A DNA stretch of 64,000 nucleotides. Origin: a virus (Duplodnaviria > Heunggongvirae > Uroviricota > Caudoviricetes). Under the pieces are notes generated by a model that did not search any database, was not told where the DNA came from, and saw only the letters and a list, made by a program, of their open reading frames with translations. The DNA lies in the IMG/VR virus record IMGVR_UViG_3300005527_003200; one strand, given 5' to 3'. The first letter of the stretch is position 1; every line of letters begins with the position of its first letter. This document shows positions 251-27,418 of the stretch, in pieces. The translations under genes were made by a program, and so were the position numbers.

Positions 251-279
251 AGTATAGCATCTCCTGCTTTACTGGTCAA
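251..279 (-). promoter_or_regulatory. Sigma-70-like promoter: -35 TTGACC, 17-bp spacer, -10 TATACT. It fires leftward into the ORF-free region 1-245.
   Basis: The minus strand reads GTTGACC-agtaaagcaggagatgc-TATACT. It is copy 1 of a roughly 90-bp tandem repeat. Confidence 0.5.
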
Positions 280-348
280 CTTGTTTTGTAAATGCCCCGC
301 CTTGTTGCAGGGTCTTTACAAACTTCGCTGTTTTTCTAACTTGTGTCT

Positions 349-377
349 AGTATAGCACCAATCCAATTATTGGTCTA
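349..377 (-). promoter_or_regulatory. Sigma-70-like promoter: -35 TAGACC, 17-bp spacer, -10 TATACT. It is tandem with the promoter at 251-279.
   Basis: This is the second copy of the repeat tgtttt(t)ctaact.gt.tctagtatagca on the plus strand. Spacer length is conserved. Confidence 0.45.
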
Positions 378-384
378 CTGCCAT

Positions 385-415
385 AAAAAAACCCGCCTAC
401 TTGGCGGGTTTTTTG
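385..415. terminator. Bidirectional rho-independent terminator (AAAAAAACCCGCC-tactt-GGCGGGTTTTTTGG)
   Basis: A perfect 7-bp GC stem with a 5-nt loop is flanked by an A7 run and a T6 run. It lies 20 nt downstream of the porin stop. Confidence 0.85.
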
Positions 416-433
416 GTTTGTACTACTTCTGTT

Positions 434-1324
434 TTAGAACTGTACGACCAACCCGCCTGCTACTTGTTTGACATCAGTGGCTGCTGAGGTTCCCTCAACT
501 GTACGATACAAAACTTGTGCATAGGTCTTTTTGCTGAAAGCATACTCAGCACCTACGTTGTAACTCTTGATGCCATTTTCAATGCGACCATAGCTGGCCT
601 TCACTGTGACTGGTCCACCAAGTTTGTGTGCCACGCCGACCAACTGAGCACGGTTGGTGTTGGCAGCAACGCCTTTGTTGTCGCTTGCGCTGGCAAACAC
701 AGTGGTTGCACCAAATTTAGCACGAGCAGCCAACACGTCACTGGTTTCTGCGCCAGCTTCGTAACGAGCATAAGTCAACACAGCAGGTCCAACTGCGGCA
801 ATCACGGATGCGGCATAAGGATCAGCGGCAGTGCCAACAGCACCAGTGCTACGATCAAAGTTAGCAGAGACATTGCCAAAGTTCACAGAAGTGAAAGCGG
901 CATTGCTCAAACGCAAACCACGCAGGTTATGCACGTCGGCAGCTGAGCTACCAATCAATGTGCCAAATGGATCATTGTCGCTGATGGCCAAGAAGTGAGT
1001 GTGAACATTGCGACCAAGATCAACGCTACCCATTTTGTGAGCAATACCCACGGTGCTTTGGCGATCGCCAAGTCTAGTGTCAGTACCAGTGTCTGGGCTG
1101 TTGGCTTGGATGCCGGTCTCGTATGTGGCACGAGCTGTTAATCCGCCACCTAAGTTTTCAGTAGCACGAATGCCAAAGTGACTCAAGTCATTGGCCATGC
1201 CTTGCACGGTGGAAGCACCAGTTTTGGTGTTGTCAAGGTAAGTGCCAACACGACCATAGATACCAACTTGTGCGCTTGCAACACCAGCAACTGCCAGGGT
1301 CAACGCAATTAGAACTTTCTTCAT
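434..1324 (-). CDS. Outer-membrane porin, Gram-negative general porin family (betaproteobacterial OpcP/Omp32-like)
   Basis: There is a signal peptide ending in ASA-Q, a Gly/Ala/Thr-rich beta-barrel composition and a C-terminal ...VVQF with terminal Phe. The N-terminal VGIYGRV resembles the porin TLYGR motif. Confidence 0.75.
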   Translation of the reverse strand: MKKVLIALTLAVAGVASAQVGIYGRVGTYLDNTKTGASTVQGMANDLSHFGIRATENLGGGLTARATYETGIQANSPDTGTDTRLGDRQSTVGIAHKMGSVDLGRNVHTHFLAISDNDPFGTLIGSSAADVHNLRGLRLSNAAFTSVNFGNVSANFDRSTGAVGTAADPYAASVIAAVGPAVLTYARYEAGAETSDVLAARAKFGATTVFASASDNKGVAANTNRAQLVGVAHKLGGPVTVKASYGRIENGIKSYNVGAEYAFSKKTYAQVLYRTVEGTSAATDVKQVAGGLVVQF

Positions 1325-1372
1325 AAGTAATTTTTCCTTGTTAATGAAATGATCAAATGTCGATCATAGAGT

Positions 1373-1402
1373 ATTATATAGCACAAACACTGAGAATGTC
1401 AA
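1373..1402 (-). promoter_or_regulatory. Sigma-70 promoter for the porin gene: -35 TTGACA, -10 TATATAAT
   Basis: The minus strand reads cTTGACAttctcagtgtttgtgcTATATAAT. This gives a leader of about 45 nt with an AAGGAAAA RBS before the ATG. Confidence 0.65.
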
Positions 1403-1404
1403 AG

Positions 1405-1430
1405 AAAATGGCTACTTTCGCAGCCATTTT
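1405..1430 (-). terminator. Hairpin (AAAATGGCT-N8-AGCCATTTT) followed by TTTTCTTT on the minus strand; terminator insulating the porin promoter from upstream transcription
   Basis: A 9-bp stem and a T-rich tail on the minus strand sit immediately upstream of the -35 element. Confidence 0.5.
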
Positions 1431-1805
1431 GGTGGTTTCTGTTACGAGGTATTTCCTACCCTAGACGACCTTAAGCGGCCATCAAGAATTTTTCATCATT
1501 TGCAGATAAAAGTTTTGCTTGATTTACGGTCATCGCCTACCGTGCTGTCCACTCTGTTACTCTTTGCCCTGTCGAATCTAGGTCAGGCCCATCATAAAGA
1601 AACTTAATCTACGCTTAATGTTGTTAACAACAAGCATAATATTGGAAAAACAATTAATAAAAATTTTGCTAAATTTTCCATATTACCATAACTCACAGTT
1701 TTTTATTTTCTCTTCGTCCAATGTGGTATCACGTGTAAAATAAAATACACCAAACACTAACCAAAATAACAAAAATAAAACATAACCTATCATTAAACTT
1801 CCTTA

Positions 1806-1837
1806 TGGTGGACCTGGGGGGATTCGCACCCCCGTCC
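1806..1837 (-). other. tRNA-like 3' minihelix: T-arm (GGGGG-TGCGAAT-CCCCC) plus 7-nt acceptor 3' strand plus A plus encoded CCA. No matching 5' half was found.
   Basis: The minus strand reads GGACGGGGGTGCGAATCCCCCCAGGTCCACCA. No GGACCTG-type 5' acceptor (wobble allowed) occurs within 350 nt upstream. Confidence 0.3.
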
Positions 1838-2055
1838 AGAACACTTTTCTCTCGGCTTCATACAGCAATAACTCGCAGTATATATTTATTCTTTGGGCTT
1901 GTCAACTGCTTTGGAGATGATGTCATACACTTGTGCGTATGCATCAGTAATTTTGTCTAGTTGTTGTTCCGACACCAAGTCTGTGTCCTCCAGACTGACC
2001 AAGTCTCGGGCTAGATTTTCTTGTAGTTTTTTTATGGGATTGAGCACATACCTAT

Positions 2056-2589
2056 TTATTCATCCCCGCTATCTACTGGGATCCAGCCCAACTTAAAAAA
2101 GTCTTCCTGGATTTCTTCTGTGACATGTCCTTCGGGTACATATCTTTTAACACCGTCAGCATCACCATTGCCCAGTCCATCGCCTATGCCCGAACAGTAC
2201 CAATCAATATAGTCACCTTGTTCACGCATGTCGGCAACAATACCCCCGGCATAGCGCCACGAACAACTGTAGGTCTCTCCCTTTAGCAAAGGCCATACTT
2301 CGTTGCGTTGCCAGTCTTGATTGCACAAGGCTGCGTAGATGTTTTGAGCGTAGGTATCGCTGGCCTTGGCTTTGTCGCAAACCCACTTGGTGCTACGCAA
2401 ATCATATTCAAGATTGTTTTCTCGCCACCGTTCGTCGGCTTCGCGTTGAGCCTGATGTTCGTTGATCATGCGTTCAAGATCTAAAGCTCGTTGAACATCT
2501 TCGTCAGTGGCAGGATCTCCTCCTTCCGCAATGACATCTTCAATTCTGCATTGACTGTGAAAGGTTCCGCGAGTAGGACTTTTGTTCAT
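2056..2589 (-). CDS. Hypothetical protein (178 aa; acidic C-terminus)
   Basis: The track ORF was trimmed to an internal Met (MNKSPTRG...) because the listed start runs into tRNA-Leu. Confidence 0.55.
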   Translation of the reverse strand: MNKSPTRGTFHSQCRIEDVIAEGGDPATDEDVQRALDLERMINEHQAQREADERWRENNLEYDLRSTKWVCDKAKASDTYAQNIYAALCNQDWQRNEVWPLLKGETYSCSWRYAGGIVADMREQGDYIDWYCSGIGDGLGNGDADGVKRYVPEGHVTEEIQEDFFKLGWIPVDSGDE

Positions 2590-2595
2590 AATGTT

Positions 2596-2681
2596 TGGTA
2601 CCAGAGACGGGACTCGAACCCGTATGCCCTTGCAAGCGGCAGATTTTAAGTCTGCTGTGTATACCATTCCACCACTCTGGC
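2596..2681 (-). tRNA. tRNA-Leu (anticodon TAA), long variable arm
   Basis: A manual cloverleaf gives GCCAGAG acceptor, anticodon loop CTTAAAA, variable arm CGCTTGCAAGGGCATAC, T-arm GGGTTCGAGTCCC and an encoded CCA. Confidence 0.85.
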
Positions 2682-2699
2682 TTTGCGTTATTTAATACA

Positions 2700-2774
2700 T
2701 GGTCCGGCGTAGAGGAATCGAACCTCTATAATGACTTTAGAAGAATCATGTCCTATCCGTTGAACGAACGCCAG
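2700..2774 (-). tRNA. tRNA-Arg (anticodon TCT)
   Basis: Manual fold: the acceptor CTGGCGT pairs with ACGCCGG, the anticodon loop is CTTCTAA, the T-arm is AGAGGTTCGATTCCTCT, and CCA is encoded. Confidence 0.8.
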
Positions 2775-2779
2775 ATGTT

Positions 2780-2854
2780 TGGTGGGCCAACTTGGAATTG
2801 AACCAAGACTCGACCGATTATGAGTCGGTTGCTTTACCATTAAGCTATTGGCCC
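2780..2854 (-). tRNA. tRNA-Met (anticodon CAT; elongator Met, initiator, or lysidine-modified tRNA-Ile not resolved)
   Basis: Manual fold gives GGGCCAA acceptor, anticodon loop CTCATAA, T-arm CTTGGTTCAATTCCAAG, and an encoded CCA. Confidence 0.8.
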
Positions 2855-2877
2855 TGTGCTACATTGTAGCAGGAAAA

Positions 2878-3258
2878 CTATTTAGTGTCAACTGTTCCGT
2901 CGGCCAGGTGGTCATGTTTGATTTCTTTTACAGGATGCCCTAAAATGCTGGCAACAGAATTTTTGTAAGCAATACGTTTGTTGTTATGATCTCTAATGGC
3001 AATGGCTCGGCGACCAATCTCCTGAAGGCTCAACATTTGCTCCACGCCTGATTTGAGCTGCCATTCTAGATCCCAGATAGCATGATGGATGTCGGTCATT
3101 GCTTGAATGTCCTCATCTAGTTCTGCGCTTTGTGGTAGTTGTCGAAACTTGTCCTCGTACCAATCAAGTTCAACTTGGTTGGCGCCTTTGGTTCGTGCAT
3201 GTTTTACTCTGGCAATGCAGAGTCGATCAATTAGTTCTAATACTGGAAGAAATTCCAT
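2878..3258 (-). CDS. Hypothetical protein (126 aa)
   Basis: This ORF has its own consensus promoter and an AGGG RBS. No confident domain was seen. Confidence 0.6.
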   Translation of the reverse strand: MEFLPVLELIDRLCIARVKHARTKGANQVELDWYEDKFRQLPQSAELDEDIQAMTDIHHAIWDLEWQLKSGVEQMLSLQEIGRRAIAIRDHNNKRIAYKNSVASILGHPVKEIKHDHLADGTVDTK

Positions 3259-3287
3259 AGCATACCCTTTCTATTTTGTATAGAATT

Positions 3288-3316
3288 ATTATACAAAAAT
3301 GCTAAGTGTTTGTCAA
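3288..3316 (-). promoter_or_regulatory. Consensus sigma-70 promoter: TTGACA, 17-bp spacer, TATAAT
   Basis: The minus strand reads cgTTGACAaacacttagcatttttgTATAAT. The -10 element is 30 nt upstream of the ATG at 3258. Confidence 0.7.
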
Positions 3317-4077
3317 CGGTCTTTGTCAGTTCTTACCAATTGAATTAAGCGGTATCCAGGATCAAATTCCCACCATTTTTTGCCAAACTGTGGATCTGCG
3401 GCAGCGGCGTGATGATTGTTGTGCCAGCCCTCTCCACCAGTCAAATATCCTACCAGCAGGTTATTTGAACTTTGATCACGTGTGTCAAAATTTCTATATC
3501 CTGATGGACTGTGAGTGAGAGAGTTGGTCAGTGAACTGGCATGTTGCAACAATAGTGACGGAACCAAATAAGCATACACTACTGCATAAGGATCTATCAT
3601 GTAAACTGCCACCCCGACCAAGATAGTGTACAACCAATGATTGTAGTACATGTGCATGTGAAATTTGGATTTCACAATCTCTGGAGCATAACTTAATTTT
3701 GGAGTAGCAGGTGTGAGTCTAAATTGCACGGCTAGATAACCGTATACCGCAGGTGAGTGCGGATCATCTTTTGTGTCAGAGTGTCTATGATGCGCTCGAT
3801 GTATTGCTACCCAATACAACATTGGTAAAGTTGTGCCAGGAATAGCAATCAATGTTCCTAGATATTCAAACCATTTTGGTGCTTGAAAAGAACGATGGGT
3901 GATCAGCCGATGAACTGTTACAGTTCCGACTACCATCTTGATATAGTAGACCAACAGACATATTGCCCACTGCCATGCTTCACTGTTGAAGATAAAGTAG
4001 ACCAGGATCACATGTAGACAGGCACTGTATGCAATCATTTCGTTGTGCGAAGGCACAAACCAGTTTTTCTTTTTCAT
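3313..4077 (-). CDS. Membrane fatty-acid/lipid desaturase (histidine-box di-iron family)
   Basis: Three His boxes are present (HRLITH, HRAHHRH, HNNHH) together with multiple TM segments. Confidence 0.8.
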   Translation of the reverse strand: MKKKNWFVPSHNEMIAYSACLHVILVYFIFNSEAWQWAICLLVYYIKMVVGTVTVHRLITHRSFQAPKWFEYLGTLIAIPGTTLPMLYWVAIHRAHHRHSDTKDDPHSPAVYGYLAVQFRLTPATPKLSYAPEIVKSKFHMHMYYNHWLYTILVGVAVYMIDPYAVVYAYLVPSLLLQHASSLTNSLTHSPSGYRNFDTRDQSSNNLLVGYLTGGEGWHNNHHAAAADPQFGKKWWEFDPGYRLIQLVRTDKDR

Positions 4078-4085
4078 GCAGATAC

Positions 4086-4244
4086 TTATGCATCTACTTG
4101 CAGTAGGTCAGCCTCTTGATCCATTTCCATTTCGGTAATCAGCAGGTCAGCAAATTGCTGACAGAAGATAGCAAACCAAAGTTGGTCCATCGCTTCTTCG
4201 GGTGCGCCAGCGGCCCGCACCAGGCGTTCAAGTTCAGTATTCAT
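4086..4244 (-). CDS. Small hypothetical protein (about 52 aa), paralogue of the genes at 5968..6195 and 6562..6855
   Basis: The unlisted ORF starts MNTELERLV...FADLLITE. It shares the MNE.I..LA..AG...FAELIV pattern with the two listed paralogues. Confidence 0.45.
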   Translation of the reverse strand: MNTELERLVRAAGAPEEAMDQLWFAIFCQQFADLLITEMEMDQEADLLQVDA

Positions 4245-4537
4245 AGCCTGGAATCATAAGTGAAGGCAGCAAGATATCGCATGCTGGCACGGCTGGGAAT
4301 GTGCTGATTACAGAACCGTTGGTATGCCGCACGCCAACGCTTTTGGACAGGTGCTGGCGCATGGCAAGCAAGATAATGCAAGTGGCCAAATCTGCGCCCA
4401 ATGCTGATGTGATTGGGCTTCCAGCCTGCAGGATACCATTTGTCGCGAGTTTGCCAATTGTAGTTTACCCAGACACCCATTCGGCGTTCTTGCATGATAT
4501 ACTTTTTAGATATATCTTGTGGTCTAAATCGGTTCAT
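4241..4537 (-). CDS. Hypothetical protein (98 aa)
   Basis: It shares an ATGA overlap with the upstream SPFH gene. Orientation is consistent with the operon. Confidence 0.45.
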   Translation of the reverse strand: MNRFRPQDISKKYIMQERRMGVWVNYNWQTRDKWYPAGWKPNHISIGRRFGHLHYLACHAPAPVQKRWRAAYQRFCNQHIPSRASMRYLAAFTYDSRL

Positions 4538-5328
4538 TTTTGCATCATCAGCGCATTGAAGTTTGCAGGAACAACAATTGTTTGCACACGACCGTTCTTG
4601 ATACCTTCTGAGATATTCATCATAGCCTGCGCTTGCATGTAAGCAATTGACTGAGCACCTTGATTACTCAATGCTTGCATACGTTCTGCTTCCATCTTAG
4701 CAGTCTTAACTTCAACTTCTTTTTGTTTCAATTCATTCTTGGCACGAACCAACTCATTTGCACTCGCAACCACAGAATCTGCAGGTACAATATTCCGAAT
4801 CAACACTTGACCAACAACCAAACTACCATCAAGTTTTTCATCAGCCAAACTCTTTTGAATTTGTTCTTTAATTGCTTGTTCCATCACTTGGCGATTATCA
4901 GCCATGTCTAGTGCCTCGTACTTTCGGGCTTCTTTGTAGATGGCATTACGAGTGGTTTGAACCATATAGTTGTACATCAAGTAGATGTCGCCGTTGTGCC
5001 GAGCATGGAATGCTTGACTCTTTTGGCTATACAACTCGGCTACCTGTGCTTGATTGATGTTATAGATAACCACTGCATCAAAGTCTTTCATTGTTGAGTT
5101 ATCTTTAGCAACAGGTGTCATGTCCTCCAGTTTGACATTAACGTCCTTGATTGGGAATGTAAGAACATCACCCCAAAAGGTTTGATTAAACGAGCCAGGC
5201 ATTAATTCACCTTGCTGGACTTGTTTATCAAAGCCAACACGTACACCAACTTCACCTGTTTCGATACGAGTACAACCTGTTGCCAGCACAGCCGCGGCAA
5301 GAACGGAGAGAGTCAAAATACGTTTCAT
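4534..5328 (-). CDS. SPFH/Band-7 (prohibitin/HflK-like) lipoprotein
   Basis: A lipobox (LATGC) is followed by the SPFH-domain pattern and a coiled-coil C-terminus. Confidence 0.7.
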   Translation of the reverse strand: MKRILTLSVLAAAVLATGCTRIETGEVGVRVGFDKQVQQGELMPGSFNQTFWGDVLTFPIKDVNVKLEDMTPVAKDNSTMKDFDAVVIYNINQAQVAELYSQKSQAFHARHNGDIYLMYNYMVQTTRNAIYKEARKYEALDMADNRQVMEQAIKEQIQKSLADEKLDGSLVVGQVLIRNIVPADSVVASANELVRAKNELKQKEVEVKTAKMEAERMQALSNQGAQSIAYMQAQAMMNISEGIKNGRVQTIVVPANFNALMMQK

Positions 5329-5337
5329 TTTATTTCC

Positions 5338-5526
5338 TTAAAAAAGTACCACAAGGGCAAGTAGACTACCAAAAGTAAGTATAGCACAAAATGCACTGTA
5401 AGTCAAGAGTTTTACCAAACTCCACGATTCTTTTCCGGACATGTTCCGTAGGTACTGAATGCCGAAAAAGAACATGCCAAACACAACAACAAAAGCCAAT
5501 AGGATTCTAATCATCACACTCTCCAA
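5338..5526 (-). CDS. Small two-TM membrane protein, possible NfeD-like partner of the SPFH protein
   Basis: The 62-aa product has two hydrophobic helices and lies directly downstream of the SPFH gene. Confidence 0.45.
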   Translation of the reverse strand: MESVMIRILLAFVVVFGMFFFGIQYLRNMSGKESWSLVKLLTYSAFCAILTFGSLLALVVLF

Positions 5527-5987
5527 ATTTCTTCAAAACCTTCCGACAAGTCTGGCTCTTCCCAGTCCCGAATCATGCGAGCAATCACCTCAGATGGGAT
5601 TGTTTTGCCCGGACGGCCGGCCAATCGTCTAGCCAATTCTTCAGGCTCGGGCGTTCGAAATACCACAGCAATGGCCGAGTATTCCGGCAACATGCGAAAC
5701 TTTTTGGCCCGGCTTGCCCGTGTGGTGCTGGTCTGATCCCAGATGATGTCGTTGTTGTTAGCCTGTGCAGTCAACGCATGGTTGGTCATCAGGCGAACAG
5801 CAATAGGCATGTATTCTTCAAACACTTCTGAATAGGTCTTGCCTTGGCTCCGGGCATAATCTTCCACCCAGGGGTCTGTGCTGACCACACTCAAGCCCAA
5901 GGCCCAGACCTGGTCTTTGATCCAGGTGCTTTTGCCTGATCCTGGCACTCCTACCAACATGTACAATTTAGGCACTTTCAACTCCAA
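5514..5987 (-). CDS. P-loop kinase (AAA_33 / polynucleotide-kinase- or zeta-toxin-like NTPase)
   Basis: A Walker A motif (VGVPGSGKST) lies near the N-terminus of a protein of about 155 aa. Confidence 0.65.
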   Translation of the reverse strand: MELKVPKLYMLVGVPGSGKSTWIKDQVWALGLSVVSTDPWVEDYARSQGKTYSEVFEEYMPIAVRLMTNHALTAQANNNDIIWDQTSTTRASRAKKFRMLPEYSAIAVVFRTPEPEELARRLAGRPGKTIPSEVIARMIRDWEEPDLSEGFEEIWRV

Positions 5988-6195
5988 AATGTTCTTTGAT
6001 ATTCTTTGCAGAAAAGGTCAACGCTCTATCCCATTGATTATTACCGTGCCCGTTACCAATGCTTGCTTGTTCAATACATTCTCTCACAATCAACTCGGCG
6101 AATTTTTTACACTCTGGCATATCCCAGTGTCCAATGCCAAACATATCTTTTTCGTAGCCAGCCTGTTCAGCAAGTTGTCGAATTCGTTCGTTCAT
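5968..6195 (-). CDS. Small hypothetical protein (75 aa), KFAELIVREC paralogue family
   Basis: It shares MNE.I..LAE.AG and KFAELIVREC with the gene at 6562..6855. Confidence 0.55.
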   Translation of the reverse strand: MNERIRQLAEQAGYEKDMFGIGHWDMPECKKFAELIVRECIEQASIGNGHGNNQWDRALTFSAKNIKEHFGVESA

Positions 6196-6401
6196 ATCAT
6201 ACCCTCAAACAATTTTTTAACCGATATCGCCTGACCTGTAGTATAAACAATATCAAAACTATCATTCTCAATGTGATACCGATTGCGGTTGCAATTTACA
6301 TACTCACCCTTGTCATCAGTATACACTTGTCGCATCTGTGTATAGGTTTTATCCACAGCACCATCAAAGATAACCCGTGTAGTGATTTTACGCTTGTTCA
6401 T
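6192..6401 (-). CDS. Hypothetical protein (69 aa)
   Basis: It shares an ATGA overlap with the upstream gene. Confidence 0.45.
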   Translation of the reverse strand: MNKRKITTRVIFDGAVDKTYTQMRQVYTDDKGEYVNCNRNRYHIENDSFDIVYTTGQAISVKKLFEGMI

Positions 6402-6403
6402 TC

Positions 6404-6564
6404 TTCAACCTCTGTTTCAAAAGTAGAAATTTCTTGATCTTCTGTCAGATCCAGACTTTCTAGTGCGTATTCTAAATTGTTCCTGGATGCAAACACACGG
6501 ACACTCACATCGGGCACTTCACTGTCTTTGTCAAATGTTTGAACAGCATAGCCGTAGACTTTCA
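6404..6564 (-). CDS. Small hypothetical acidic protein (about 54 aa; MKVYGYAVQTFDKD...)
   Basis: This ORF is unlisted because it is under 60 aa. Its start overlaps the stop of the upstream paralogue. Confidence 0.35.
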
Positions 6565-6855
6565 TTCTTCAACTCCAAATTTCTTTTTCGCTAATTCTTG
6601 TTCGCATTGAGCAATGGAGGCGTCAAGCATAGCAGTTGTGATTTCTTTGGGATTCATTCCAAAATGCAATTTAATCAAATCTACTCCCTGACCGCGACTG
6701 ATCATGTCACGCAACATGGGATTCAATGCTATGCAACATTCCCGCACAATCAACTCGGCGAACTTTTCAATTTCGTCATCTAACAATGAAACAGCATGGT
6801 CATTGCTGTATACTGCGCCAGCCTCAACCGCAAGTAGTTTAATTTGTTCGTTCAT
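6562..6855 (-). CDS. Small hypothetical protein (97 aa), KFAELIVREC paralogue family
   Basis: It shares its N-terminal half with the gene at 5968..6195. Confidence 0.55.
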   Translation of the reverse strand: MNEQIKLLAVEAGAVYSNDHAVSLLDDEIEKFAELIVRECCIALNPMLRDMISRGQGVDLIKLHFGMNPKEITTAMLDASIAQCEQELAKKKFGVEE

Positions 6856-6856
6856 T

Positions 6857-6960
6857 TTACATCCTTATATAACCATCGGCGGAATCTTGTTGATACTGTT
6901 GTTAGCACATTTATGCCAATAATAACAACGACTGCAATAACAATAACAATTTCAATCATT
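6857..6960 (-). CDS. Micro-ORF encoding a single-TM peptide (about 35 aa; MIEIVIVIAVVVIIG...)
   Basis: A GGAG RBS lies 7 nt upstream. Its start overlaps the upstream stop and its stop overlaps the downstream start (ATGA-type coupling). Confidence 0.35.
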
Positions 6961-7066
6961 CTTTAACTCCAAAATGTTTTTTACATTTGTGAAATGGCAT
7001 AATACGACCAAGCCATCCAATCAGTTCACCGCAATTTTGGCAACAGTATGATGGGTATTTCTTCAT
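6956..7066 (-). CDS. Micro-ORF encoding a zinc-ribbon-like peptide (about 36 aa; CCQNCG...HKC)
   Basis: This is the internal Met of track ORF 6956..7144. Its start overlaps the stop of the gene at 7063..7341. Confidence 0.35.
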   Translation of the reverse strand: MKKYPSYCCQNCGELIGWLGRIMPFHKCKKHFGVKE

Positions 7067-7341
7067 TTCAAATCGCCACGCAGGGTGTGCCACATTTTGG
7101 GATCGGTGCCCAAGTAGATGCGATACTTTTGATAATTGCGCCACTGGCTCAGTCGGTTCACACCACGCTCGACCCAGTCAAACATGGCACTGCGGAACCA
7201 CAAGGGATTCACAATGGCCACAATCAGTGCTGCCGCCACAGGCACAATCAGCACAGCCACAACCACCCAATGAAATGTCATGGCACGGTAGTAACGGCCA
7301 CCACCAGGCACCAGTTCAATTTCTTTACTCATATTTGCCAT
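7063..7341 (-). CDS. Small membrane protein (92 aa, one long TM segment)
   Basis: It contains the hydrophobic stretch WVVVAVLIVPVAAALIVAIV. Confidence 0.5.
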   Translation of the reverse strand: MANMSKEIELVPGGGRYYRAMTFHWVVVAVLIVPVAAALIVAIVNPLWFRSAMFDWVERGVNRLSQWRNYQKYRIYLGTDPKMWHTLRGDLK

Positions 7342-7742
7342 TCCTTTTTTGTTTTGCGTTTGAAAGTTGTTGGGTCAATCACTGCCGACAGGGCTTGCGT
7401 GACATCTTCCGCAGTGTCTGGGTCAGTGCTCTTTTTGAGTCCTAGTGCAACCTTTTCTTCTGCTGTGAGTTTACGCAGGGCCGCACGCCGCAGGCGCAGA
7501 CGCTCTTGTTTGCGTTCTTCCTTTTCGCGGGCCTTGCGGTCTGCTTCTTTGTGTTTAGCCCACCATTCACGCACCTCGTCATCACGGAGCAACAACAGAT
7601 CTTCAATCTTGTTGTTTTCCAGTTCAGTCATGGCCTTGCAGGCAATGCGAGCCAGCATGTCAGCACGGTCTTTGAGATCGCGATACTGCCAACTGTCAGT
7701 GGGGCTGGAATAACTGTCTGATGCATAATCTCTACAGGGCAT
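7329..7742 (-). CDS. Hypothetical basic coiled-coil protein (137 aa)
   Basis: The product is K/R/E-rich. It is operon-consistent. Confidence 0.5.
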   Translation of the reverse strand: MPCRDYASDSYSSPTDSWQYRDLKDRADMLARIACKAMTELENNKIEDLLLLRDDEVREWWAKHKEADRKAREKEERKQERLRLRRAALRKLTAEEKVALGLKKSTDPDTAEDVTQALSAVIDPTTFKRKTKKEWQI

Positions 7743-7743
7743 G

Positions 7744-8136
7744 TTACTCTCCTTGTGTCTGCAGGGCTTTCAAAAACTCCACACATGCGGCCTCGGTGCG
7801 CTTGGTCACTACCACCCGGCCACCCCAGAAGCCCACATACAGACTGCGGTGCTCCACAAACTTCACTTCACCGTCAGCACCAGTATGCTTTTGACGAGCC
7901 GCTGGCTTTGCAGGCACTGCCTTTTTTGCAGGTGCTTTAGGCACTGCGGCCACCACAGGCTTTGCTGTCACTGCCTTTGCAGGTGCAGGCACTGCAAGCG
8001 GACGATGCTCAAAGCCATGTTTCTTATCATACTTGGCAATGGCTTTTTCATCCATGCCCCATGTGGCCAGTAGTCGGCGAACTTCAGTGCCGGGCAGTTG
8101 ATTCCAGTGTATGATAGGGTCAGTCCAGTTGGTCAT
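7744..8136 (-). CDS. Hypothetical protein with an Ala/Pro/Lys-rich linker (130 aa)
   Basis: It contains AKP repeats of the form PAPAKAVTAKPVVAAVPKAPAKK. Confidence 0.5.
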   Translation of the reverse strand: MTNWTDPIIHWNQLPGTEVRRLLATWGMDEKAIAKYDKKHGFEHRPLAVPAPAKAVTAKPVVAAVPKAPAKKAVPAKPAARQKHTGADGEVKFVEHRSLYVGFWGGRVVVTKRTEAACVEFLKALQTQGE

Positions 8137-8146
8137 GTTGGGCTCC

Positions 8147-8347
8147 TTAATAAGATTGATGTGAATGTCCGATACGATACACGGGTGCGCCTGGCGTCAA
8201 ATCATTTTCCGGAGTATACACTTCCGGCAACATGATATCCGCAAACTCACCGTAGGAGTAATAACCAGACTCGGTCACTACCAAGCGAGCATCAGCGGGC
8301 AGGGCACGGAGTGCCTCAATCATTTGTGCTACAGTTATAGTGGTCAT
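8147..8347 (-). CDS. Small hypothetical protein (66 aa)
   Basis: The listed ORF was trimmed to a Met that has an AAGGAG RBS and lies directly behind a consensus promoter. Confidence 0.55.
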   Translation of the reverse strand: MTTITVAQMIEALRALPADARLVVTESGYYSYGEFADIMLPEVYTPENDLTPGAPVYRIGHSHQSY

Positions 8348-8374
8348 CTCAAGCTCCTTAGTGTCTATGTGTGT

Positions 8375-8403
8375 ATTATAGCAAATTGGGAATTTTTGGT
8401 CAA
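8375..8403 (-). promoter_or_regulatory. Sigma-70 promoter: TTGACC, 17-bp spacer, TATAAT, with a conserved ACACACATAGACA leader
   Basis: The minus strand reads gGTTGACCaaaaattcccaatttgcTATAATacacacatagacactAAGGAGcttgagATG. Confidence 0.75.
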
Positions 8404-8600
8404 CCGTGCAGAGCAGTCCAGGTTTCCCAGGGCTGATCGCGAATGTATTGTATTGCCTTAACACCACCTTTAACCCTGCAGGCATACTGCATGGCTGTGG
8501 CAAATTTGCCACGCTGACGATGTGTTTTGCGAGCTAATCCTACCGGATTGAGCTTCCATTTCCACAGCGAGTCATATTTGCCGCGAATCATCTTGTGCAT
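8400..8600 (-). CDS. Small basic hypothetical protein (66 aa)
   Basis: It has its own promoter and a GAGGAG RBS. Confidence 0.55.
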   Translation of the reverse strand: MHKMIRGKYDSLWKWKLNPVGLARKTHRQRGKFATAMQYACRVKGGVKAIQYIRDQPWETWTALHG

Positions 8601-8628
8601 GGTGGCTCCTCTGTTGTCTATGTGTGTA

Positions 8629-8657
8629 TTATAGCAAAACGGTGATTTGGTGTCAAC
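8629..8657 (-). promoter_or_regulatory. Consensus sigma-70 promoter: TTGACA, 17-bp spacer, TATAAT, with the same conserved leader
   Basis: The minus strand reads gGTTGACAccaaatcaccgttttgcTATAATacacacatagaca. The -35 element overlaps the stop codon of the upstream gene. Confidence 0.75.
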
Positions 8658-8982
8658 CGTTTTGCTTCACGCGAACGTCCGTGTTCAGCGCAGGTGCATA
8701 CTTTTGTATTAACTCGCGCTCCAACTTATGTGCGGCATCTTTGCCACGCACAATGTCCACGATAGCCACGTTCATTGCTTCAGTACCGTTTGCGCGAATT
8801 GCTTCGTACAAGTTCCAGCCTTTGTCTTCTGTGCGGCTACGGTAGATGTGCTTGTTCACACGGCTACGGAGCGACATGTTGATTGTGCGCTGGGTTTTTG
8901 CGGTAATACCAATGTAGTACTCAAATCCAATTTGGATCATGTACACTATGTGGCTGCGATCAGTACGTTTCTTTCTCATCAT
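8653..8982 (-). CDS. GIY-YIG domain protein (small, YhbQ-like, no obvious DNA-binding extension)
   Basis: It carries a VYMIQ...YYIGIT (GIY-YIG) motif plus conserved R and E residues. Its ATG lies only 6 nt downstream of the -10 hexamer. Confidence 0.65.
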
Positions 8983-8988
8983 GTGTGT

Positions 8989-9017
8989 ATTATAGCATTT
9001 TGGGCATTTTTGGTCAA
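8989..9017 (-). promoter_or_regulatory. Sigma-70 promoter: TTGACC, 17-bp spacer, TATAAT. It predicts a leaderless or near-leaderless mRNA for the GIY-YIG gene.
   Basis: The minus strand reads gGTTGACCaaaaatgcccaaaatgcTATAATacacacATGATG. Confidence 0.65.
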
Positions 9018-9045
9018 CCGAAATGCCTGTTGCAAAAATACAACA

Positions 9046-9085
9046 AAAGTACTACTTTTTTTAGCCCTAAAAGTAGTACTTTTTT
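9046..9085. promoter_or_regulatory. Perfect 15-17-bp palindrome (AAAAGTACTACTTTT / AAAAGTAGTACTTTT) between divergent transcription units; bidirectional terminator or operator
   Basis: An inverted repeat with an 8-nt loop is flanked by A/T runs on both strands. Confidence 0.5.
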
Positions 9086-9110
9086 CAGCAAAAATTGAAT
9101 ATTTGGTCAA
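9082..9110 (-). promoter_or_regulatory. Degenerate fourth copy of the promoter repeat: TTGACC -35 with a poor -10 (TGAAAA)
   Basis: It shares GGTTGACCAAA...TTTTGC with the copies at 8375, 8629 and 8989. Confidence 0.25.
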
Positions 9111-9136
9111 CCAAAGTGTGGGCTATAAGTAACAGC

Positions 9137-10210
9137 ATGGACACTGATCTTTACCACGACATTTACACTAGCGAAATTTTTGACACCAGCCAATGCATAT
9201 GGCACGAAAATAATACCATGAATTTCTTTCACAGTTTGTTGATCAAACTGGGATATGAGCCTGTGCAAGATGGACACAAAACATGGCGCCGTGGAGACCG
9301 TACTGTGGTGCTGTGTCTGGTAGACGACTACATCTCTACCACATACGACTATGACACACCAGTGGCATATCGATTTGATCGCAATACCACAGTGATCACA
9401 GACAACTATGTTACCAGTCCAACCTTGTACAAGGTGTTTCAACTGCCATCCAGTTTCTTTGGCATCTATCATTATGAACCCAAGCTGACCAATTTCAATC
9501 CCACACGCAGATTTAATTTTTCAGTCAATCGCATTGATTCCAAACGCATGTTGACCATGCTGGAAATTGCGTTGCGTTGTGAAAAGTATCCAGATGCTGA
9601 AACGTTGGACTTTATCAATTTCAACTGCTGGAGTTGGGAAGGTGACAATTCCACAGCTGAAGGATGCAATCAAAATTTCAGAGATGCCTACGAAAAACTA
9701 GAGCCACAATACAAAGCAGTGTATGGTGACACTTTTGAACGCATTGCTCAAACCATGCCATTTAAAAATCATGACATGTCAGTTGAGCAGGCACACCTCA
9801 GTGCTTATGTGAACATGGTAATTGAAACCTACTCCAGTGACAGTTCAATTGCTCTCAGCGAGAAGATATTCCGTGCATTGGTCACTCCGGCACCCTGGCA
9901 AGTGTATGCTGGCCGCCATGCAGTGGCCTATCTGGAAAGTCTAGGATTTGACACACTCAAAGACATTGTCAATCACAGTTACGATGTCATGATGGAAAAC
10001 AAAACTGCTGCCTATGGTGACAAACTGGTTGAATACATCTTTGCTGGCGCAGATACATTTACCAAACTCAGTGCTATGGATCGCACAGAACTGCGACATC
10101 GTTGCCTTACTGCCAGCAGACAAAATCAAAAGGTGCTCAAAGACATGAGTGCTCGTTGGCCTGCAGAGTTTGCCGCTTGGTTGCCGGCTGTTATAGACCA
10201 TATCAAATAA
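9137..10210 (+). CDS. Putative glycosyltransferase, GT10-like (alpha-1,3-fucosyltransferase-type C-terminal motif), paralogue A
   Basis: Its C-terminus (ETYSSD...SEKIFRAL...PWQVYAG...LGFDTLKDIVNHSYD) resembles the GT10 FEN...TEK...PVV motif. It is shared with the genes at 12398, 28080 and 49134. The listed ORF was trimmed to its first ATG. Confidence 0.5.
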   Translation: MDTDLYHDIYTSEIFDTSQCIWHENNTMNFFHSLLIKLGYEPVQDGHKTWRRGDRTVVLCLVDDYISTTYDYDTPVAYRFDRNTTVITDNYVTSPTLYKVFQLPSSFFGIYHYEPKLTNFNPTRRFNFSVNRIDSKRMLTMLEIALRCEKYPDAETLDFINFNCWSWEGDNSTAEGCNQNFRDAYEKLEPQYKAVYGDTFERIAQTMPFKNHDMSVEQAHLSAYVNMVIETYSSDSSIALSEKIFRALVTPAPWQVYAGRHAVAYLESLGFDTLKDIVNHSYDVMMENKTAAYGDKLVEYIFAGADTFTKLSAMDRTELRHRCLTASRQNQKVLKDMSARWPAEFAAWLPAVIDHIK

Positions 10211-10211
10211 C

Positions 10212-11753
10212 ATGTGTGGTGTTCTATACGTAAAAAGCACCACTGATATACCGCTAGAAAAGCACAACCAAGCTCTAGAAATTTTAAAAGATCGCGGTCC
10301 AGATTTTACCTGTTACCAACATCATGGTCGTGTGTTCTGTGCGCAAACAGTTCTGCACATCACTGGCAACACACAATTTTACAATCGACAGTCAGATGAT
10401 TTTTTTGCATTCAATGGCGAAATCTACAACTATCGCTGGTTTGGTTCCTACAGCAACGACACTGAGCTGATGTATCGTGCTGTAAAAGACGCACCAGTAA
10501 AAAAACTCAAATACTTTGAAGGACCGTGGGCGTGGGTGTATGCTCAAGGCGACCAAGTGATATATGCCACTGATCCACAAGGCGAAAGATGCCTGTACAG
10601 ATATCAAGACAACAACATACTGATTGTGAGTTCTGAGGTGGCAGCTATTTTGGTATACATCCGACCAAAATTACAAGACATTGATTACACAACCAAACAC
10701 TATCCAATTTGGCAAAACACGCCTTGGCAAGGAATTGAACGATGTGTGCCAGGTGTGATGTATGATCAGTCGGGCAACACCACAGTGATTGACAGTATCT
10801 TTTCATGGGCCAAACCCAGTAGTATTCAAACATTGGACCAGGCCTGGGAAGAATATCAACCCTTGTGGGAACGGGTAATCACTGACATGCGGCCAGAAAC
10901 ATCTTATGCCTGCACATTCAGTGGTGGGCTTGATTCTGGCGTGGTTGCAAAAAGTCTTCCACAAAGTCAGCACTATTATACCACCAACATGCTGGGCAAA
11001 GACCCAGTGAGTGAACAATCTCAACGTATGTTGGAAGGCAGTCAACGAGACAAAATCATCAACATTGGTGTTACAGAACAGCAATGGGCCGATGCATTTG
11101 AGCAAGTGTGTCGTCGCACACTGATGCCAGTTCAAAGCTACAGTTTTGTTGGCCAGTGGATAATTGCTCAACACTGCAAAGAACGTGTGTTGTTTACTGG
11201 TGTAGGCGCTGATGAACTGTTTGGTGGCTATGGCGTTTACTCACAGCTTGAATACACCACACAAACAAGTGCAAGTCCTTACAGTTCATTTGGCAATGAC
11301 ACTCACGCTCAACAACTGTGGCAACAATGTTTGCATGCACATCAAGGTCAAGCAGAGCCAGCCACTCTGTTGATGGATTATATCACTCAAATTTGTGCAA
11401 TAGACATGCGTGGCATTGACGTTTGTACCATGGCACATGGCATTGAACCACGCTCGCCATTTGTGCATCCTAAGATCATTCGGTTTGCACTTGGCCTTCC
11501 CATGCACCTGAGGCGCGGCAAACCTTTGATTCGTCGACAGTTTTTGGCCTCCTGGCCTGAAGAAATGATACTTCCCAAAAAAGGATTCACTGGACATTGC
11601 AATGATTCATTGCCTTGGATGAAATTCACTGTGCCAGATCAGGCTCGGGCACCACAGTGGAAGCAAATTGTCAAAACTGGATTTAGATATTATGCCAATC
11701 AATATCTTGATCAAACCACTCAGGACTTATCCGCACATGCGGATGTTGCTTGA
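10212..11753 (+). CDS. Asparagine-synthetase-B-like glutamine amidotransferase (class-II GATase plus PP-loop ATP pyrophosphatase)
   Basis: Cys is the first residue after the initiator Met. A PP-loop SGGLDS is present, and the C-terminal MAHGIEPRSPF matches the AsnB E.R.PFLD motif. Confidence 0.75.
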   Translation: MCGVLYVKSTTDIPLEKHNQALEILKDRGPDFTCYQHHGRVFCAQTVLHITGNTQFYNRQSDDFFAFNGEIYNYRWFGSYSNDTELMYRAVKDAPVKKLKYFEGPWAWVYAQGDQVIYATDPQGERCLYRYQDNNILIVSSEVAAILVYIRPKLQDIDYTTKHYPIWQNTPWQGIERCVPGVMYDQSGNTTVIDSIFSWAKPSSIQTLDQAWEEYQPLWERVITDMRPETSYACTFSGGLDSGVVAKSLPQSQHYYTTNMLGKDPVSEQSQRMLEGSQRDKIINIGVTEQQWADAFEQVCRRTLMPVQSYSFVGQWIIAQHCKERVLFTGVGADELFGGYGVYSQLEYTTQTSASPYSSFGNDTHAQQLWQQCLHAHQGQAEPATLLMDYITQICAIDMRGIDVCTMAHGIEPRSPFVHPKIIRFALGLPMHLRRGKPLIRRQFLASWPEEMILPKKGFTGHCNDSLPWMKFTVPDQARAPQWKQIVKTGFRYYANQYLDQTTQDLSAHADVA

Positions 11754-12399
11754 AATATTTTTCAACCCAATCCAAGCATTGTGATTCGCTAGGAGTCACT
11801 GACCTAGTGCGAGAACTGTTGAATTCATACCAGTACAACCCGTATGGTGCCTGAGAATCTGTAAATCTAAAAGTAAACAACTGTCCGGGATCTGCTCCGC
11901 ACAGTTTGGCAAATCTATCAAAAGTTGTGATTGGTTCAAAGTCTGAATACAAGTGTGCTCGACTGTGATGTGTGGTAATAAATCCTGGCACAGTTTGTAT
12001 TTCGGGCAATCGTTCTAGACATCGCAATCGTGAATCTCCATTGCCAGCAAGATATGTGCCATCACCCTGATCTAACACCAAAAATGGTTTTATAATGCCC
12101 TGTGCTCGTATGTCTCGTATCCACATGTTGAGCTTGACAAGATTGGCAATGTCATAGTGATTGCGCGGCTCAGCTAGAAACCCTGCTGGCCCATCATGAT
12201 CTAGCCACTGATTGGCCCATTCGCAAAGATCATTCAGTCGTTGGTTGGTTGAAAAGTGTCGAAATTCGCAACTGGGATTCCAGAACAAGCAATGCATGCC
12301 TTGATTTGAACTGATCTGAATGGGATCTTGTTTGCTGGGCCAGTGAAATTCCACAAGAGGATTATTCCAATACATAGATCTACTTAGTAAATAGGTCAT
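11683..12399 (-). CDS. Hypothetical protein on the opposite strand, possibly ParB/sulfiredoxin-like (GNGDSRL)
   Basis: It is a 238-codon ORF in an otherwise unassigned 640-nt gap. Its start codon overlaps the divergent start of the gene at 12398. Confidence 0.4.
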   Translation of the reverse strand: MTYLLSRSMYWNNPLVEFHWPSKQDPIQISSNQGMHCLFWNPSCEFRHFSTNQRLNDLCEWANQWLDHDGPAGFLAEPRNHYDIANLVKLNMWIRDIRAQGIIKPFLVLDQGDGTYLAGNGDSRLRCLERLPEIQTVPGFITTHHSRAHLYSDFEPITTFDRFAKLCGADPGQLFTFRFTDSQAPYGLYWYEFNSSRTRSVTPSESQCLDWVEKYFKQHPHVRISPEWFDQDIDWHNI

Positions 12400-13357
12400 G
12401 GACTATACATCTTTGTTTGCCAACACACTCTCTGGCTTGGGGTTTGATCTGCATGCAGTTTACAACTGCTTTGATCCGCCATATCGTCCAGAAACTGGTT
12501 GGCCGTTAAAGTTGCCCAACATTGAATTCAAACACAACACACTGCTGTTGTTGCATTTTCAAGATTTCATAACACCATGTCAGGGTCGCATACTTGAACT
12601 GGAACAAGTAGAACGCCACTATGGCGCCAATGCACATCGTGTGCTGGTAACTTATTGGAGTCATAATTTACAAAAATACTATCAAGGACCAGTGAACCTT
12701 ATCGAATTCAGCAATCACAACATGGCCACTGTGACTGCTATCCAAGCTCGTGAGTCACAATGGACCAATTCAATAAATGCAAAAACTTCAGCATGGCAAT
12801 GCCTCAATGGTCGCATGTGCTTGCATCGTCGACGTGCTGTGGACATCTTGCAACATTGGCCTAATGGTGTGTTAAGTTACGGCAACGACATTCCACTTGA
12901 TGCTTGGGCTTATGACACCTATCGCGGCACAGAAAACGAAGATAACTTCATGCGACTGTTGCCGGTATATGCAAAATGTCAAGTGAACATTGTGACTGAA
13001 ACACAGTATGATGAGCCGCCAGGCATTGTGAGCGAAAAAACATTGATGGCGATGATTGCACAGCAGGTACCCATTGTGATTGGTCACCAAGGTATTGTGC
13101 AAGACTGTAGAGAGCTTGGGTTTGACATGTTTGACGACCTGGTGGACACCAGCTATGATAGCATGTCCAATGACGTTCGAGTCGAACAAGCCATAATGAA
13201 AAATCAAGATCTCATACTGGGAAAAATTAACCTTGCGCCATACCAAGAGCGACTGCAAAAACAAAGAAGTTTTTTGCTTGATGAATTTATAACTGGCACA
13301 CAACAACGGTACATTCAAGACGTTGAACAGTTGGCTAAAAAACTAAGTGCGATTTAA
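12398..13357 (+). CDS. Putative glycosyltransferase, GT10-like, paralogue B
   Basis: It has the C-terminal motif NIVTETQYDE...SEKTLMAM...PIVIGHQG...LGFDMFDDLVDTSYD. Confidence 0.5.
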   Translation: MDYTSLFANTLSGLGFDLHAVYNCFDPPYRPETGWPLKLPNIEFKHNTLLLLHFQDFITPCQGRILELEQVERHYGANAHRVLVTYWSHNLQKYYQGPVNLIEFSNHNMATVTAIQARESQWTNSINAKTSAWQCLNGRMCLHRRRAVDILQHWPNGVLSYGNDIPLDAWAYDTYRGTENEDNFMRLLPVYAKCQVNIVTETQYDEPPGIVSEKTLMAMIAQQVPIVIGHQGIVQDCRELGFDMFDDLVDTSYDSMSNDVRVEQAIMKNQDLILGKINLAPYQERLQKQRSFLLDEFITGTQQRYIQDVEQLAKKLSAI

Positions 13358-27351: not shown

Positions 27352-27418
27352 TTGTTATTCTCCGAGTTATAAGACGTGGATGTCTATGTGTTAATTGTAA
27401 ACTATTTAGATTGACTTG

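Follow-up and report, generated by a model that had tools for sequence, protein, structure and literature searches.

Why should three small genes at one phage locus each stand behind almost the same promoter, and what is the role of the perfect palindrome beside them? The question arises in a 64,000-nt stretch of Caudoviricetes DNA (IMG/VR record IMGVR_UViG_3300005527_003200), referred to at its full length as the window. Between positions 8147 and 9139 it holds three promoters, named here P1, P2 and P3, their genes, a half promoter (P4) and a long inverted repeat. A sequence-only reading of this DNA had proposed that the promoters share a conserved transcribed leader and had suggested a common operator or RNA signal. 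The answer that we consider probable is that P1-P3 and their genes are sigma-70-type early promoter-gene cassettes, that the P3 transcript is leaderless, that recombination acts at the promoter repeats, and that the inverted repeat may serve as a hairpin stem-loop.

All three promoters lie on the minus strand and share the pattern GGTTGAC(C/A)-N17-TGC-TATAAT-ACACAC. P1 (8362-8403) consists of the -35 element TTGACC (8398-8403), TGC, the -10 element TATAAT (8375-8380) and a 13-nt block, ACACACATAGACA, at 8362-8374. P2 (8615-8656) has TTGACA at 8651-8656, TATAAT at 8628-8633 and the same block at 8615-8627. P3 (8989-9017) has TTGACC at 9012-9017, a 17-nt spacer ending in TGC, and TATAAT at 8989-8994; the hexamer ACACAC follows at 8983-8988, and an ATG at 8982 comes directly after it. 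Scored against TTGACA-17-TATAAT, P2 matched at 12 of 12 positions and P1 and P3 at 11 of 12, with a TG upstream of each -10. P1 and P2 have in common a perfect 24-nt repeat, TTTGCTATAATACACACATAGACA (8362-8385 and 8615-8638), and the spacers of P1 and P3 differ at 3 of 18 positions. An inverted repeat, AAAACGG/CCGTTTT, encloses the -35 of P2; a 7-bp repeat is also found around the -35 of P3, and none at P1. The three copies ahead of three small genes, as described earlier, are therefore all present; the full 13-nt block occurs in only two of them, since in P3 the open reading frame (ORF) begins right after ACACAC.

Each promoter precedes one small gene on the same strand. The cargo of P1 is a 66-aa ORF (MTTITVAQ..., 8147-8347) with the Shine-Dalgarno (SD) sequence GGAG and its ATG at 8347, and that of P2 is a 66-aa ORFan (MHKMIRG..., 8400-8600) with the SD sequence GGAG, its ATG at 8600 and no Pfam or PHROG match. 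P3 stands before a 109-aa GIY-YIG-like gene (8653-8982), whose mRNA would be leaderless, starting at the A of its own ATG. The stop codon of this gene, TGA at 8653-8655, falls within the -35 of P2, and the -35 of P1 likewise contains the TGA that ends the ORF at 8400-8600. Selection for such embedded stop codons was considered in its own right and rejected, as the three frames were used 173, 158 and 128 times among 682 sites, with no enrichment.

Motif counts in the window demonstrated that these elements are not chance occurrences. The composite promoter pattern was found seven times against 0.2 expected, and a 19-mer from it, TATAATACACACATAGACA, three times against 0.01 expected. The 64 kb contain twelve strong TTGAC-N17-TAnAnT sites; every one is on the minus strand, which is the coding strand, and all twelve lie just upstream of an ORF, a tRNA-Met/Arg/Leu cluster or a permuted transfer-messenger RNA (tmRNA). 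The earlier concern that the motif might occur at random positions unrelated to gene starts was thus answered by counting: the twelve sites precede genes and are co-oriented with them. Nine of the twelve fall at 251-9017, and because of this concentration the interval resembles an early region headed by P3.

The 19-mer was used to collect related loci from IMG/VR by exact match. At least 114 stretches (designated by L-numbers) were obtained and constitute the clade loci analyzed below; 67 of the 114 listed have at least one protein in common with the window, at 25-100% identity. Among the matches listed, (G)GTTGAC was always located 17-18 nt upstream of the 19-mer with a variable spacer between them, and downstream came (G/A/C)(C/T)AA...GGAGC...ATG of many unrelated genes. 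The 1.1 Mb of clade loci contained 493 unique TTGAC..TATAAT sites, and near-consensus composites ending in SD and ATG, of the kind seen in P1 and P2, number in the hundreds. The suggestion that the array is more than a set of stray or generic promoters is borne out by this large, conserved phage promoter family positioned ahead of genes.

The position of ATG codons relative to the -10 provides the evidence for the start site. An ATG exactly 6 nt after the -10 was found in 107 of 685 unique clade promoters, with every other offset accounting for 1-20. The offset-6 ATG opened a long ORF (at least 50 codons) in 95 of the 107 cases (89%), compared with 173 of 578 (30%) for the same frame in promoters lacking the ATG (Fisher's test, p ~4e-31). 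The 97 long ORFs of this layout represent 35 protein families, GIY-YIG being the largest, and 72 of the 97 have no SD-led start nearby. Where an SD-led ATG did follow the offset-6 ATG, it was in frame in 28 of 36 instances (p 6e-8). Taken as evolutionary evidence, these statistics indicate that transcription would start at the seventh nucleotide after the -10 and that the host would translate 5'-terminal AUGs. With the start placed there, ACACAC would be an untranscribed discriminator, and only AUAGACA would appear in the RNA.

The P3 layout, TATAAT-ACACAC-ATG without an SD sequence, is one instance of this spike. TATAAT-N6-ATG was conserved in GIY-YIG homologues down to ~42% identity and was kept in 26 of 28 homologue contexts, while the six discriminator bases and the N-terminal extension varied; only the two most distant homologues (34-36% identity) had an ordinary leader with an SD sequence. 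The earlier prediction of a leaderless GIY-YIG mRNA, made from the 6-nt distance in a single copy, consequently gains strong comparative support, both from the homologues and from the family-wide signal. In the clade promoters, position 9 after the -10 is A at a frequency of 0.71 and G at 0.18, and it would in effect act as a switch between leadered (ATA) and leaderless (ATG) forms. The N-terminal extensions of several leaderless or dual-start ORFs (L084, L005, L070 and others) resemble a former 5' untranslated region (5'UTR), for example ATGACAGCAACAAAC in L084 compared with the common leader ATAGACAGCAACAAAC. Such comparisons suggest that leader can turn into coding sequence through a single-base change or a deletion.

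The P3 gene product is probably a member of the GIY-YIG nuclease family. Residues Y14, Y23-I24-G25, R41, E88 and N100, which make up the GIY-YIG signature, were invariant across 13 homologues, and homing-endonuclease families of PHROG matched the 109-aa protein at E-values of 1.9e-6 and 2.3e-5. The match to Pfam PF01541 scored 19.1 bits (E 1.6e-3), below the curated cut-off of 22.6, and PF01541 matched 3 of the 13 homologues at E < 0.01. The family assignment made in the sequence-only reading is thus upheld by the signature and the PHROG matches but not by the Pfam threshold. A PDB profile search with the protein gave no match, a single-sequence AlphaFold model was uninformative (predicted local distance difference test score 42), and Pfam and PHROG searches revealed no recognizable DNA-binding domain.

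Comparison of close relatives pointed to what the repeats do. Relatives whose GIY-YIG genes are 88-97% identical to that of the window were compared over the segment from this gene to a 130-aa gene (7744-8136 in the window). The window carries P2 with the ORF at 8400-8600, then P1 with the ORF at 8147-8347. In L085, L095 and L111 the segment contains a P2-type promoter and the homologue of the second ORF only, the first being absent; in L029, L030 and L098 there is no small gene. L014 and L035 carry P2 with an unrelated 85-aa gene followed by a further promoter, and L039 carries P2 with an unrelated 110-aa gene, likewise followed by a further promoter. The same two flanking genes thereby enclose five different cassette contents, in which the small genes are bounded by promoter copies. 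When the window was aligned with L111 and L085, one clean 253-bp unit set them apart, and both of its ends fell within the -10/block/SD repeat. The role of the promoter repeats as breakpoints of cassette gain and loss was missed in the sequence-only reading; modular gene shuffling at these repeats would be the main biological role visible in the data.

P4 (9082-9112, minus strand) fits the same pattern. It consists of GGTTGACC (9105-9112) and a 17-nt spacer, together 20/25 identical to P1, and its -10 is replaced by TGAAAA at 9082-9087, which overlaps the palindrome's T-run. Among the relatives compared, P4 was found only in the window and the L029 lineage. In L098 (~1030-1290) the corresponding place, beside the homologue of the neighboring 357-aa gene, is occupied by a 62-aa gene with a TTGACC-17-TAAACT promoter and a GTAAAC/GTTTAC terminator. 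The earlier description of a fourth copy with an intact -35 and a decayed -10, running into the palindrome, is correct, and because L098 retains an intact promoter and gene at this position, P4 would be the stump of a lost cassette.

The perfect palindrome reported earlier is likewise real. It is an inverted repeat at 9045-9083 with 15-nt arms, AAAAGTACTACTTTT (9045-9059) and AAAAGTAGTACTTTT (9069-9083), a 9-nt loop, and A-run and T-run flanks. The 15-bp hairpin is located 27 nt upstream of P3, with a predicted RNA folding free energy of -15.5 kcal/mol on the plus and -17.0 kcal/mol on the minus strand (z-scores -5.9 and -4.0). Relatives conserve the two arms and differ in the loop, as expected of a hairpin. 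At the equivalent position, directly against the -35, more distant GIY-YIG cassettes carry hairpins that are GC-rich and have T-runs, and in L098 a conventional terminator replaces the distal arm. The hairpin was not called by the terminator scan; its stem has only three G-C pairs. We tentatively favor the view that the palindrome is the stem-loop or insulator part of an element akin to the promoter-early-stem-loop elements (PeSLs) of T4-type phages, over the view that it is an operator. As a shared part of the promoters it did not hold up, for it is found only with P3 and the relatives of P3, and its distance from them varies.

An operator function is, in our view, somewhat less probable. On this account the two 15-bp arms are binding sites for a dimeric protein that controls the divergent P3/GIY-YIG promoter and the rightward gene. 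Each arm is by itself a perfect palindrome, AAAAGTA-N-TACTTTT, around a central base, and that base varies without compensation in the opposite arm in two relatives (C..A in L030, G..G in L095). Single copies stand upstream of other promoters (L045, L067, L098, L049), and the motif AAGTANTACTT occurs 26 times in the clade loci against ~2 expected, a 13-fold enrichment, with the site here lying in a divergent control region. The distances from the palindrome center to the inferred start, however, are about -70, -60, -59, -57, -50 and -49, with no fixed register; strict helical phasing of the palindrome to the start was rejected on the same variability. Furthermore, the copies mostly come as inverted pairs that form a 10-15-bp hairpin with a variable loop and A-/T-run flanks, and other lineages have ordinary GC-rich terminator hairpins at this place, the terminator of L098 included.

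Family-wide predictions of structure near the promoters gave small differences. Mean folding free energies were -7.9 versus -7.2, and -8.4 versus -8.1 and -6.9, for promoter sites and controls, respectively. A hairpin bridging the -35 was rejected as a defining feature of the family, being barely more stable than in chimeric controls, with at least 5 bridging pairs in 326 versus 306 sites. As a separate observation, structured copies were seen in L007, L012, L177, L021, L037, L053, L097 and L104. In some of them the spacer is complementary to the block after the -10 (CTGTCTATGTG..CACATAGACAG), which places the -10 in a hairpin loop; in others, 7-10-bp inverted repeats (ATAACCC../..GGGTTAT, GAACGGGTAT/ATACCCGTTC) enclose the -35.

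The conserved block after the -10 raises a further question, namely what recognizes it. Over the 493 sites its consensus is A-c-A-c-A-C-(A/T)-T-A-g-A-c-A, with most information at positions 1, 3, 6, 8 and 13. These best-conserved positions (A1, A3, C6, T8, A13) span the start site, and for that reason at least part of the constraint would act on the DNA, as promoter. The earlier term "conserved transcribed leader" therefore needs amending: the additional consensus is real, but about half of it would be untranscribed, ACACAC being a discriminator that is kept in leaderless copies. Clade promoters other than the seeds had a median of 4 mismatches to the 13 block positions. In an unbiased IMG/VR sample, collected with GGTTGAC-N15-TGCTATAAT only, the median was 7, none of the 142 sites matched the block exactly, and what they shared was mainly (C/T)AT(A) at positions 6-9. 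As read from these two samples, the block is a clade-level consensus with graded conservation and not a universal signal. The proposal of a common operator or RNA signal found no support here: the block has no palindromic symmetry, its conservation is a matter of degree inside a single clade, and it fades to a bare (C/T)AT(A) start site in the unbiased sample. In the latter sample, similarity within a locus was marginally greater than between loci for both spacer and block, a difference too small to establish a leader "dialect" for each genome.

Recognition of ACACAC|ATAGACA by a phage factor, whether as a DNA site for an operator-binding protein, recombinase or nuclease or as an RNA 5' tag for a nuclease, stabilizer or translational regulator, is in our view unlikely. 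Invariance of the block in at least 114 contigs with a free -35/-10 spacer would suit such a factor, and the closer match of the non-seed clade promoters compared with the unbiased sample fits a clade-specific, co-evolving one. GIY-YIG homologues were present in 31 of the 114 listed loci, so that a nuclease gene is linked to the arrays. Against this, the block lacks the symmetry and the all-or-none conservation of a recognition site, its conserved discriminator and CAT start point to RNA polymerase itself, and leaderless members drop the transcribed half yet persist. No candidate for such a factor emerged, and the 109-aa GIY-YIG protein lacks a recognizable DNA-binding domain. A more speculative extension, to which we assign still less weight, is that the block is an address tag of a clade-specific cassette system. 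A phage factor, which might be the GIY-YIG nuclease, would recognize the DNA or the RNA 5' end and thereby time or shut off early expression or mobilize cassettes, and the A-to-G change at +3 would toggle SD-led and leaderless forms, giving the phage two ways of translating the transcripts of a single promoter family.

That the array arose simply by a recent tandem duplication of a promoter at this site, without meaning at the level of the family, is very improbable. The similarity of the P1 and P3 spacers, the 24-nt block common to P1 and P2, and the unrelated ORFans between the copies are what such duplication would leave, but the same block follows hundreds of promoters with unrelated spacers and genes, in many contigs whose proteins are only 25-60% identical to those of the window, and the cassette content of close relatives differs exactly at the promoter copies.

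Finally, the conserved 19-23 nt might be the promoter of a phage single-subunit, T7-like RNA polymerase, its sigma-70 look being coincidental; such promoters span ~20 nt and extend past +1, and TAATAC...ATAG is loosely like TAATACGACTCACTATAG, a lead only. This is scarcely credible, as TTGAC at 17-18 nt and TGC-TATAAT are as conserved as the block and the variable spacer is that of sigma-70 architecture, the distance to ATAG falls 4 nt short of that in T7-type promoters, T4-superfamily phages use the host polymerase (PMC2988021), and the same promoter type drives tRNAs and tmRNA.

The cassette explanation, which we prefer, can be set out as follows. The locus would be the head of the leftward early region of an uncultivated T4-superfamily jumbo phage, and P1, P2 and P3 would be very strong early promoters for the host RNA polymerase, built of -35, TGC and -10. 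Each would be fused to one small gene, packed so tightly that a stop codon falls in the next -35. Transcription would begin at the A seven nucleotides after the -10, giving an ACACAC discriminator, a C-A-T start and about 7 transcribed nucleotides, AUAGACA, which run into a CA-rich, G-poor 5'UTR and then a GGAG SD sequence. At P3 the start triplet is ATG instead of ATA, and the GIY-YIG mRNA would accordingly begin at its start codon. The near-identical promoter blocks of 24-50 bp would supply the homology for recombination, by which small genes are inserted, deleted and swapped among related phages, with P4 as the remains of one such event. The A/T-flanked hairpin upstream of P3 would be a terminator or insulator stem-loop of the composite element.

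Several points weigh against this explanation. The hairpin is AT-rich, with its three G-C pairs, and the genes on either side of it start divergently, so that a terminator placed there would have no obvious incoming transcript; the central-base mismatches in L030 and L095 are uncompensated. A stem-loop is not a general component of the family, as structure upstream of or across the -35 is weakly enriched and P1 has none. The clade sample was ascertained through the 19-mer, and many of its sites are orthologous and not independent. Consensus and comparison are the grounds for calling the promoters "early" and "strong" and for placing the start site. In addition, the block stays fixed while spacers vary, so that homogenization by recombination is insufficient by itself to account for it, and the block may have an extra function.

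The source of the window is an uncultivated T4-superfamily jumbo phage. Its family-B DNA polymerase shared 51% identity with the enzyme of Sinorhizobium phage Phosso and 47% with that of Atu_ph07, with weaker matches to other T4-related jumbo phages, and searches against cultured phages found no nucleotide match: megablast of 5 kb around the locus and tblastn of the GIY-YIG protein against them returned nothing, and sensitive blastn of the promoter cassette gave chance-level matches only. Several metagenomes from ENA and JGI contained near-identical contigs. The alpha-type tmRNA, permuted and in two pieces (1471-1867, minus strand; Rfam tmRNA_permuted, 115 bits), directly follows a strong TTGACA-17-TAnAnT promoter at 1877-1905, and together with the nearest cultured relatives it hints at an alphaproteobacterial host. 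The 19-mer had six matches in bacterial genomes and no usable host signal; they were mostly contigs of metagenome-assembled genomes (Opitutia, an actinobacterium, Alphaproteobacteria, Oscillospiraceae), plus one Sporosarcina chromosome. No Rfam family was detected at the promoter locus, with chance matches to U7 and snR83 only.

Further members of the promoter family, all on the minus strand, were located elsewhere in the window. The tRNA-Met/Arg/Leu cluster (2596-2854) lies directly behind a strong TTGACA-17-TAnAnT promoter at 2863-2891, and a distant, diverged copy at 27381-27422, TTGACA-17-TACAAT-TAACACATAGACA, stands ahead of an ORF at 26659-27351. At the left end, variants at 245-279 and 343-377 read TTGACC/TAGACC-17-(TGC)TATACT-AGAGAC/AGACAC; their related discriminators, AGAGAC and AGACAC, are seen again in the distant GIY-YIG cassettes of L009 and L104. 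A Gram-negative porin-like gene at 434-1324 (minus strand; Pfam Porin_4 on an identical L115 product) has its own strong promoter at 1373-1402.

The rightward gene beyond the palindrome is of a different kind. This 357-aa gene (9137-10210, plus strand) is divergent from P3 and has no SD sequence; instead, a TATAAGTA box is followed after 5 nt by its ATG (9124-9139). No sigma-70 promoter was found for it, as TTGAAT at 23 nt from TATAAG and TTGGTC at 15-16 nt both fail to fit. The arrangement (C/A)TAAGTA-N5-ATG was conserved in the 357-aa orthologues (L014, L030, L035, L039, L057, L085, L098, L111), and it also precedes, again with no SD sequence, the genes at 12399 (box region 12386-12401) and 4077 (4075-4094), both on the minus strand. 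In the clade loci, TAAGTA and TAAATA had a gene-opening ATG at 4-6 nt, for TAAATA at 4-5 nt, far more commonly than control hexamers. The box is a candidate for a second promoter class with a leaderless start, like the TATAAATA boxes of T4 late promoters, and is offered as a lead only. Divergent ATAAATA boxes at 47162 (minus) and 47175 (plus), each with the ATG of a long ORF 4-5 nt on, are possible back-to-back late leaderless promoters. Farther along, a 238-aa ORF at 11683-12399 (minus strand) overlaps the 3' end of a convergent asparagine-synthase-like gene (10212-11753, plus strand) by ~70 nt (11683-11753); gene callers also called both genes on identical contigs.

For a large jumbo-phage clade that is uncultivated and has no cultured member in the phage collection searched, the locus offers a handle on early transcription from sequence. 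It provides a promoter model and a start site supported by evolution, and it indicates that the host would translate 5'-terminal AUGs efficiently. The idea behind PeSLs, by which a promoter is at the same time a seam where recombination reshuffles small host-takeover genes, would be extended well beyond the classical T4-like phages, with natural before-and-after examples of cassette gain, loss and decay. Presumably very strong, compact, modular promoter/5'UTR units with a one-base switch between leadered and leaderless forms are potential parts for expression design once the host is known.

Among known systems, PeSLs are the nearest. Each combines a sigma-70 early promoter, a stem-loop and an SD/ATG in one composite element, and the elements cluster at indels; crossing over takes place in the stretch from the -10 to the SD/ATG, and some copies have degraded to a form "with only intact -35 regions" (PMC2839356; PMC4122927). 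Such cassettes are known from the T4-type phages RB49/phi1, PST/T4 and nt-1/KVP40 (Arbiol et al. 2010, PMC2839356; Comeau et al. 2014, PMC4122927), and mini-circles were detected by inverse PCR on infected cells (PMC2839356). The likeness extends to repeated, near-consensus TTGACA-N17-TATAAT early promoters fused to the SD/ATG of a small ORFan, to clustering in a plastic early region, to the upstream stop codon at the element edge, to gene insertion, loss and replacement among close relatives at breakpoints that fall in the repeats, to "half" elements with only a -35, and to a stem-loop upstream of or overlapping some copies. The differences are that the present clade is a distant, uncultivated jumbo one, that a stable stem-loop is found in a minority of copies, that P1 and P2 lack the AT-rich upstream region, that a 13-nt block covering discriminator, start and initial transcribed sequence is added, and that ~16% of members have an ATG at +1, making them leaderless or dual-start.

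The early promoters of T4 are "uber" promoters in which UP, -35, TGn and -10 elements are combined with extra consensus regions (Hinton 2010, PMC2988021). P1-P3 resemble them in the near-consensus -35, TGn and -10, in the extra conserved positions, and in the many copies before small early genes. They differ in that the T4 -35 is GTTTAC-like with an A/T-rich UP element, whereas here it is GGTTGAC(C/A) with no obvious UP and the extra consensus lies downstream of the -10. Use of the host polymerase immediately after infection would be a further likeness. In very strong phage promoters the sequence from just after the -10 to about +10-20 is conserved and may tune open-complex lifetime and promoter escape. 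Kammerer et al. in 1986 and Hsu et al. in 2006 reportedly described effects of the initial transcribed sequence and discriminator at such promoters, e.g., T5 N25. The conserved sequence here is unrelated to that of T5.

Integrons are also arrays of single small genes split by a recombination-prone repeat, with content varying among relatives. Integron cassettes, in contrast, are promoterless and are moved by an integrase at attC/attI, whereas here each gene comes with a promoter, no recombinase was apparent, and homologous recombination of the general kind, acting on the repeats, would be enough to move cassettes.

The leaderless layout, too, has precedents. The cI gene of phage lambda, transcribed from PRM, gives a leaderless mRNA with a 5'-terminal AUG. 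Here, similarly, an ATG 6 nt after the -10 opens an ORF without an SD sequence, at conserved distance and frame, as read for the phage clade from sequence statistics. Among host genes, 119 of 2,675 are leaderless in Z. mobilis, ~25% in M. tuberculosis and at most 5 genes in E. coli, and leaderless mRNAs are not rare in Alphaproteobacteria (PMC7566282). In the clade studied here, by comparison, about one in six (~16%) of the strong promoters have the ATG at +1, and "dual" versions occur in which a 5'-terminal AUG is in frame with an SD-led AUG. Thus, T4-type early promoters, PeSLs and leaderless mRNAs are known already, and what is new is the clade, the conserved block at the start site, and the scale on which leaderless and dual starts are used.

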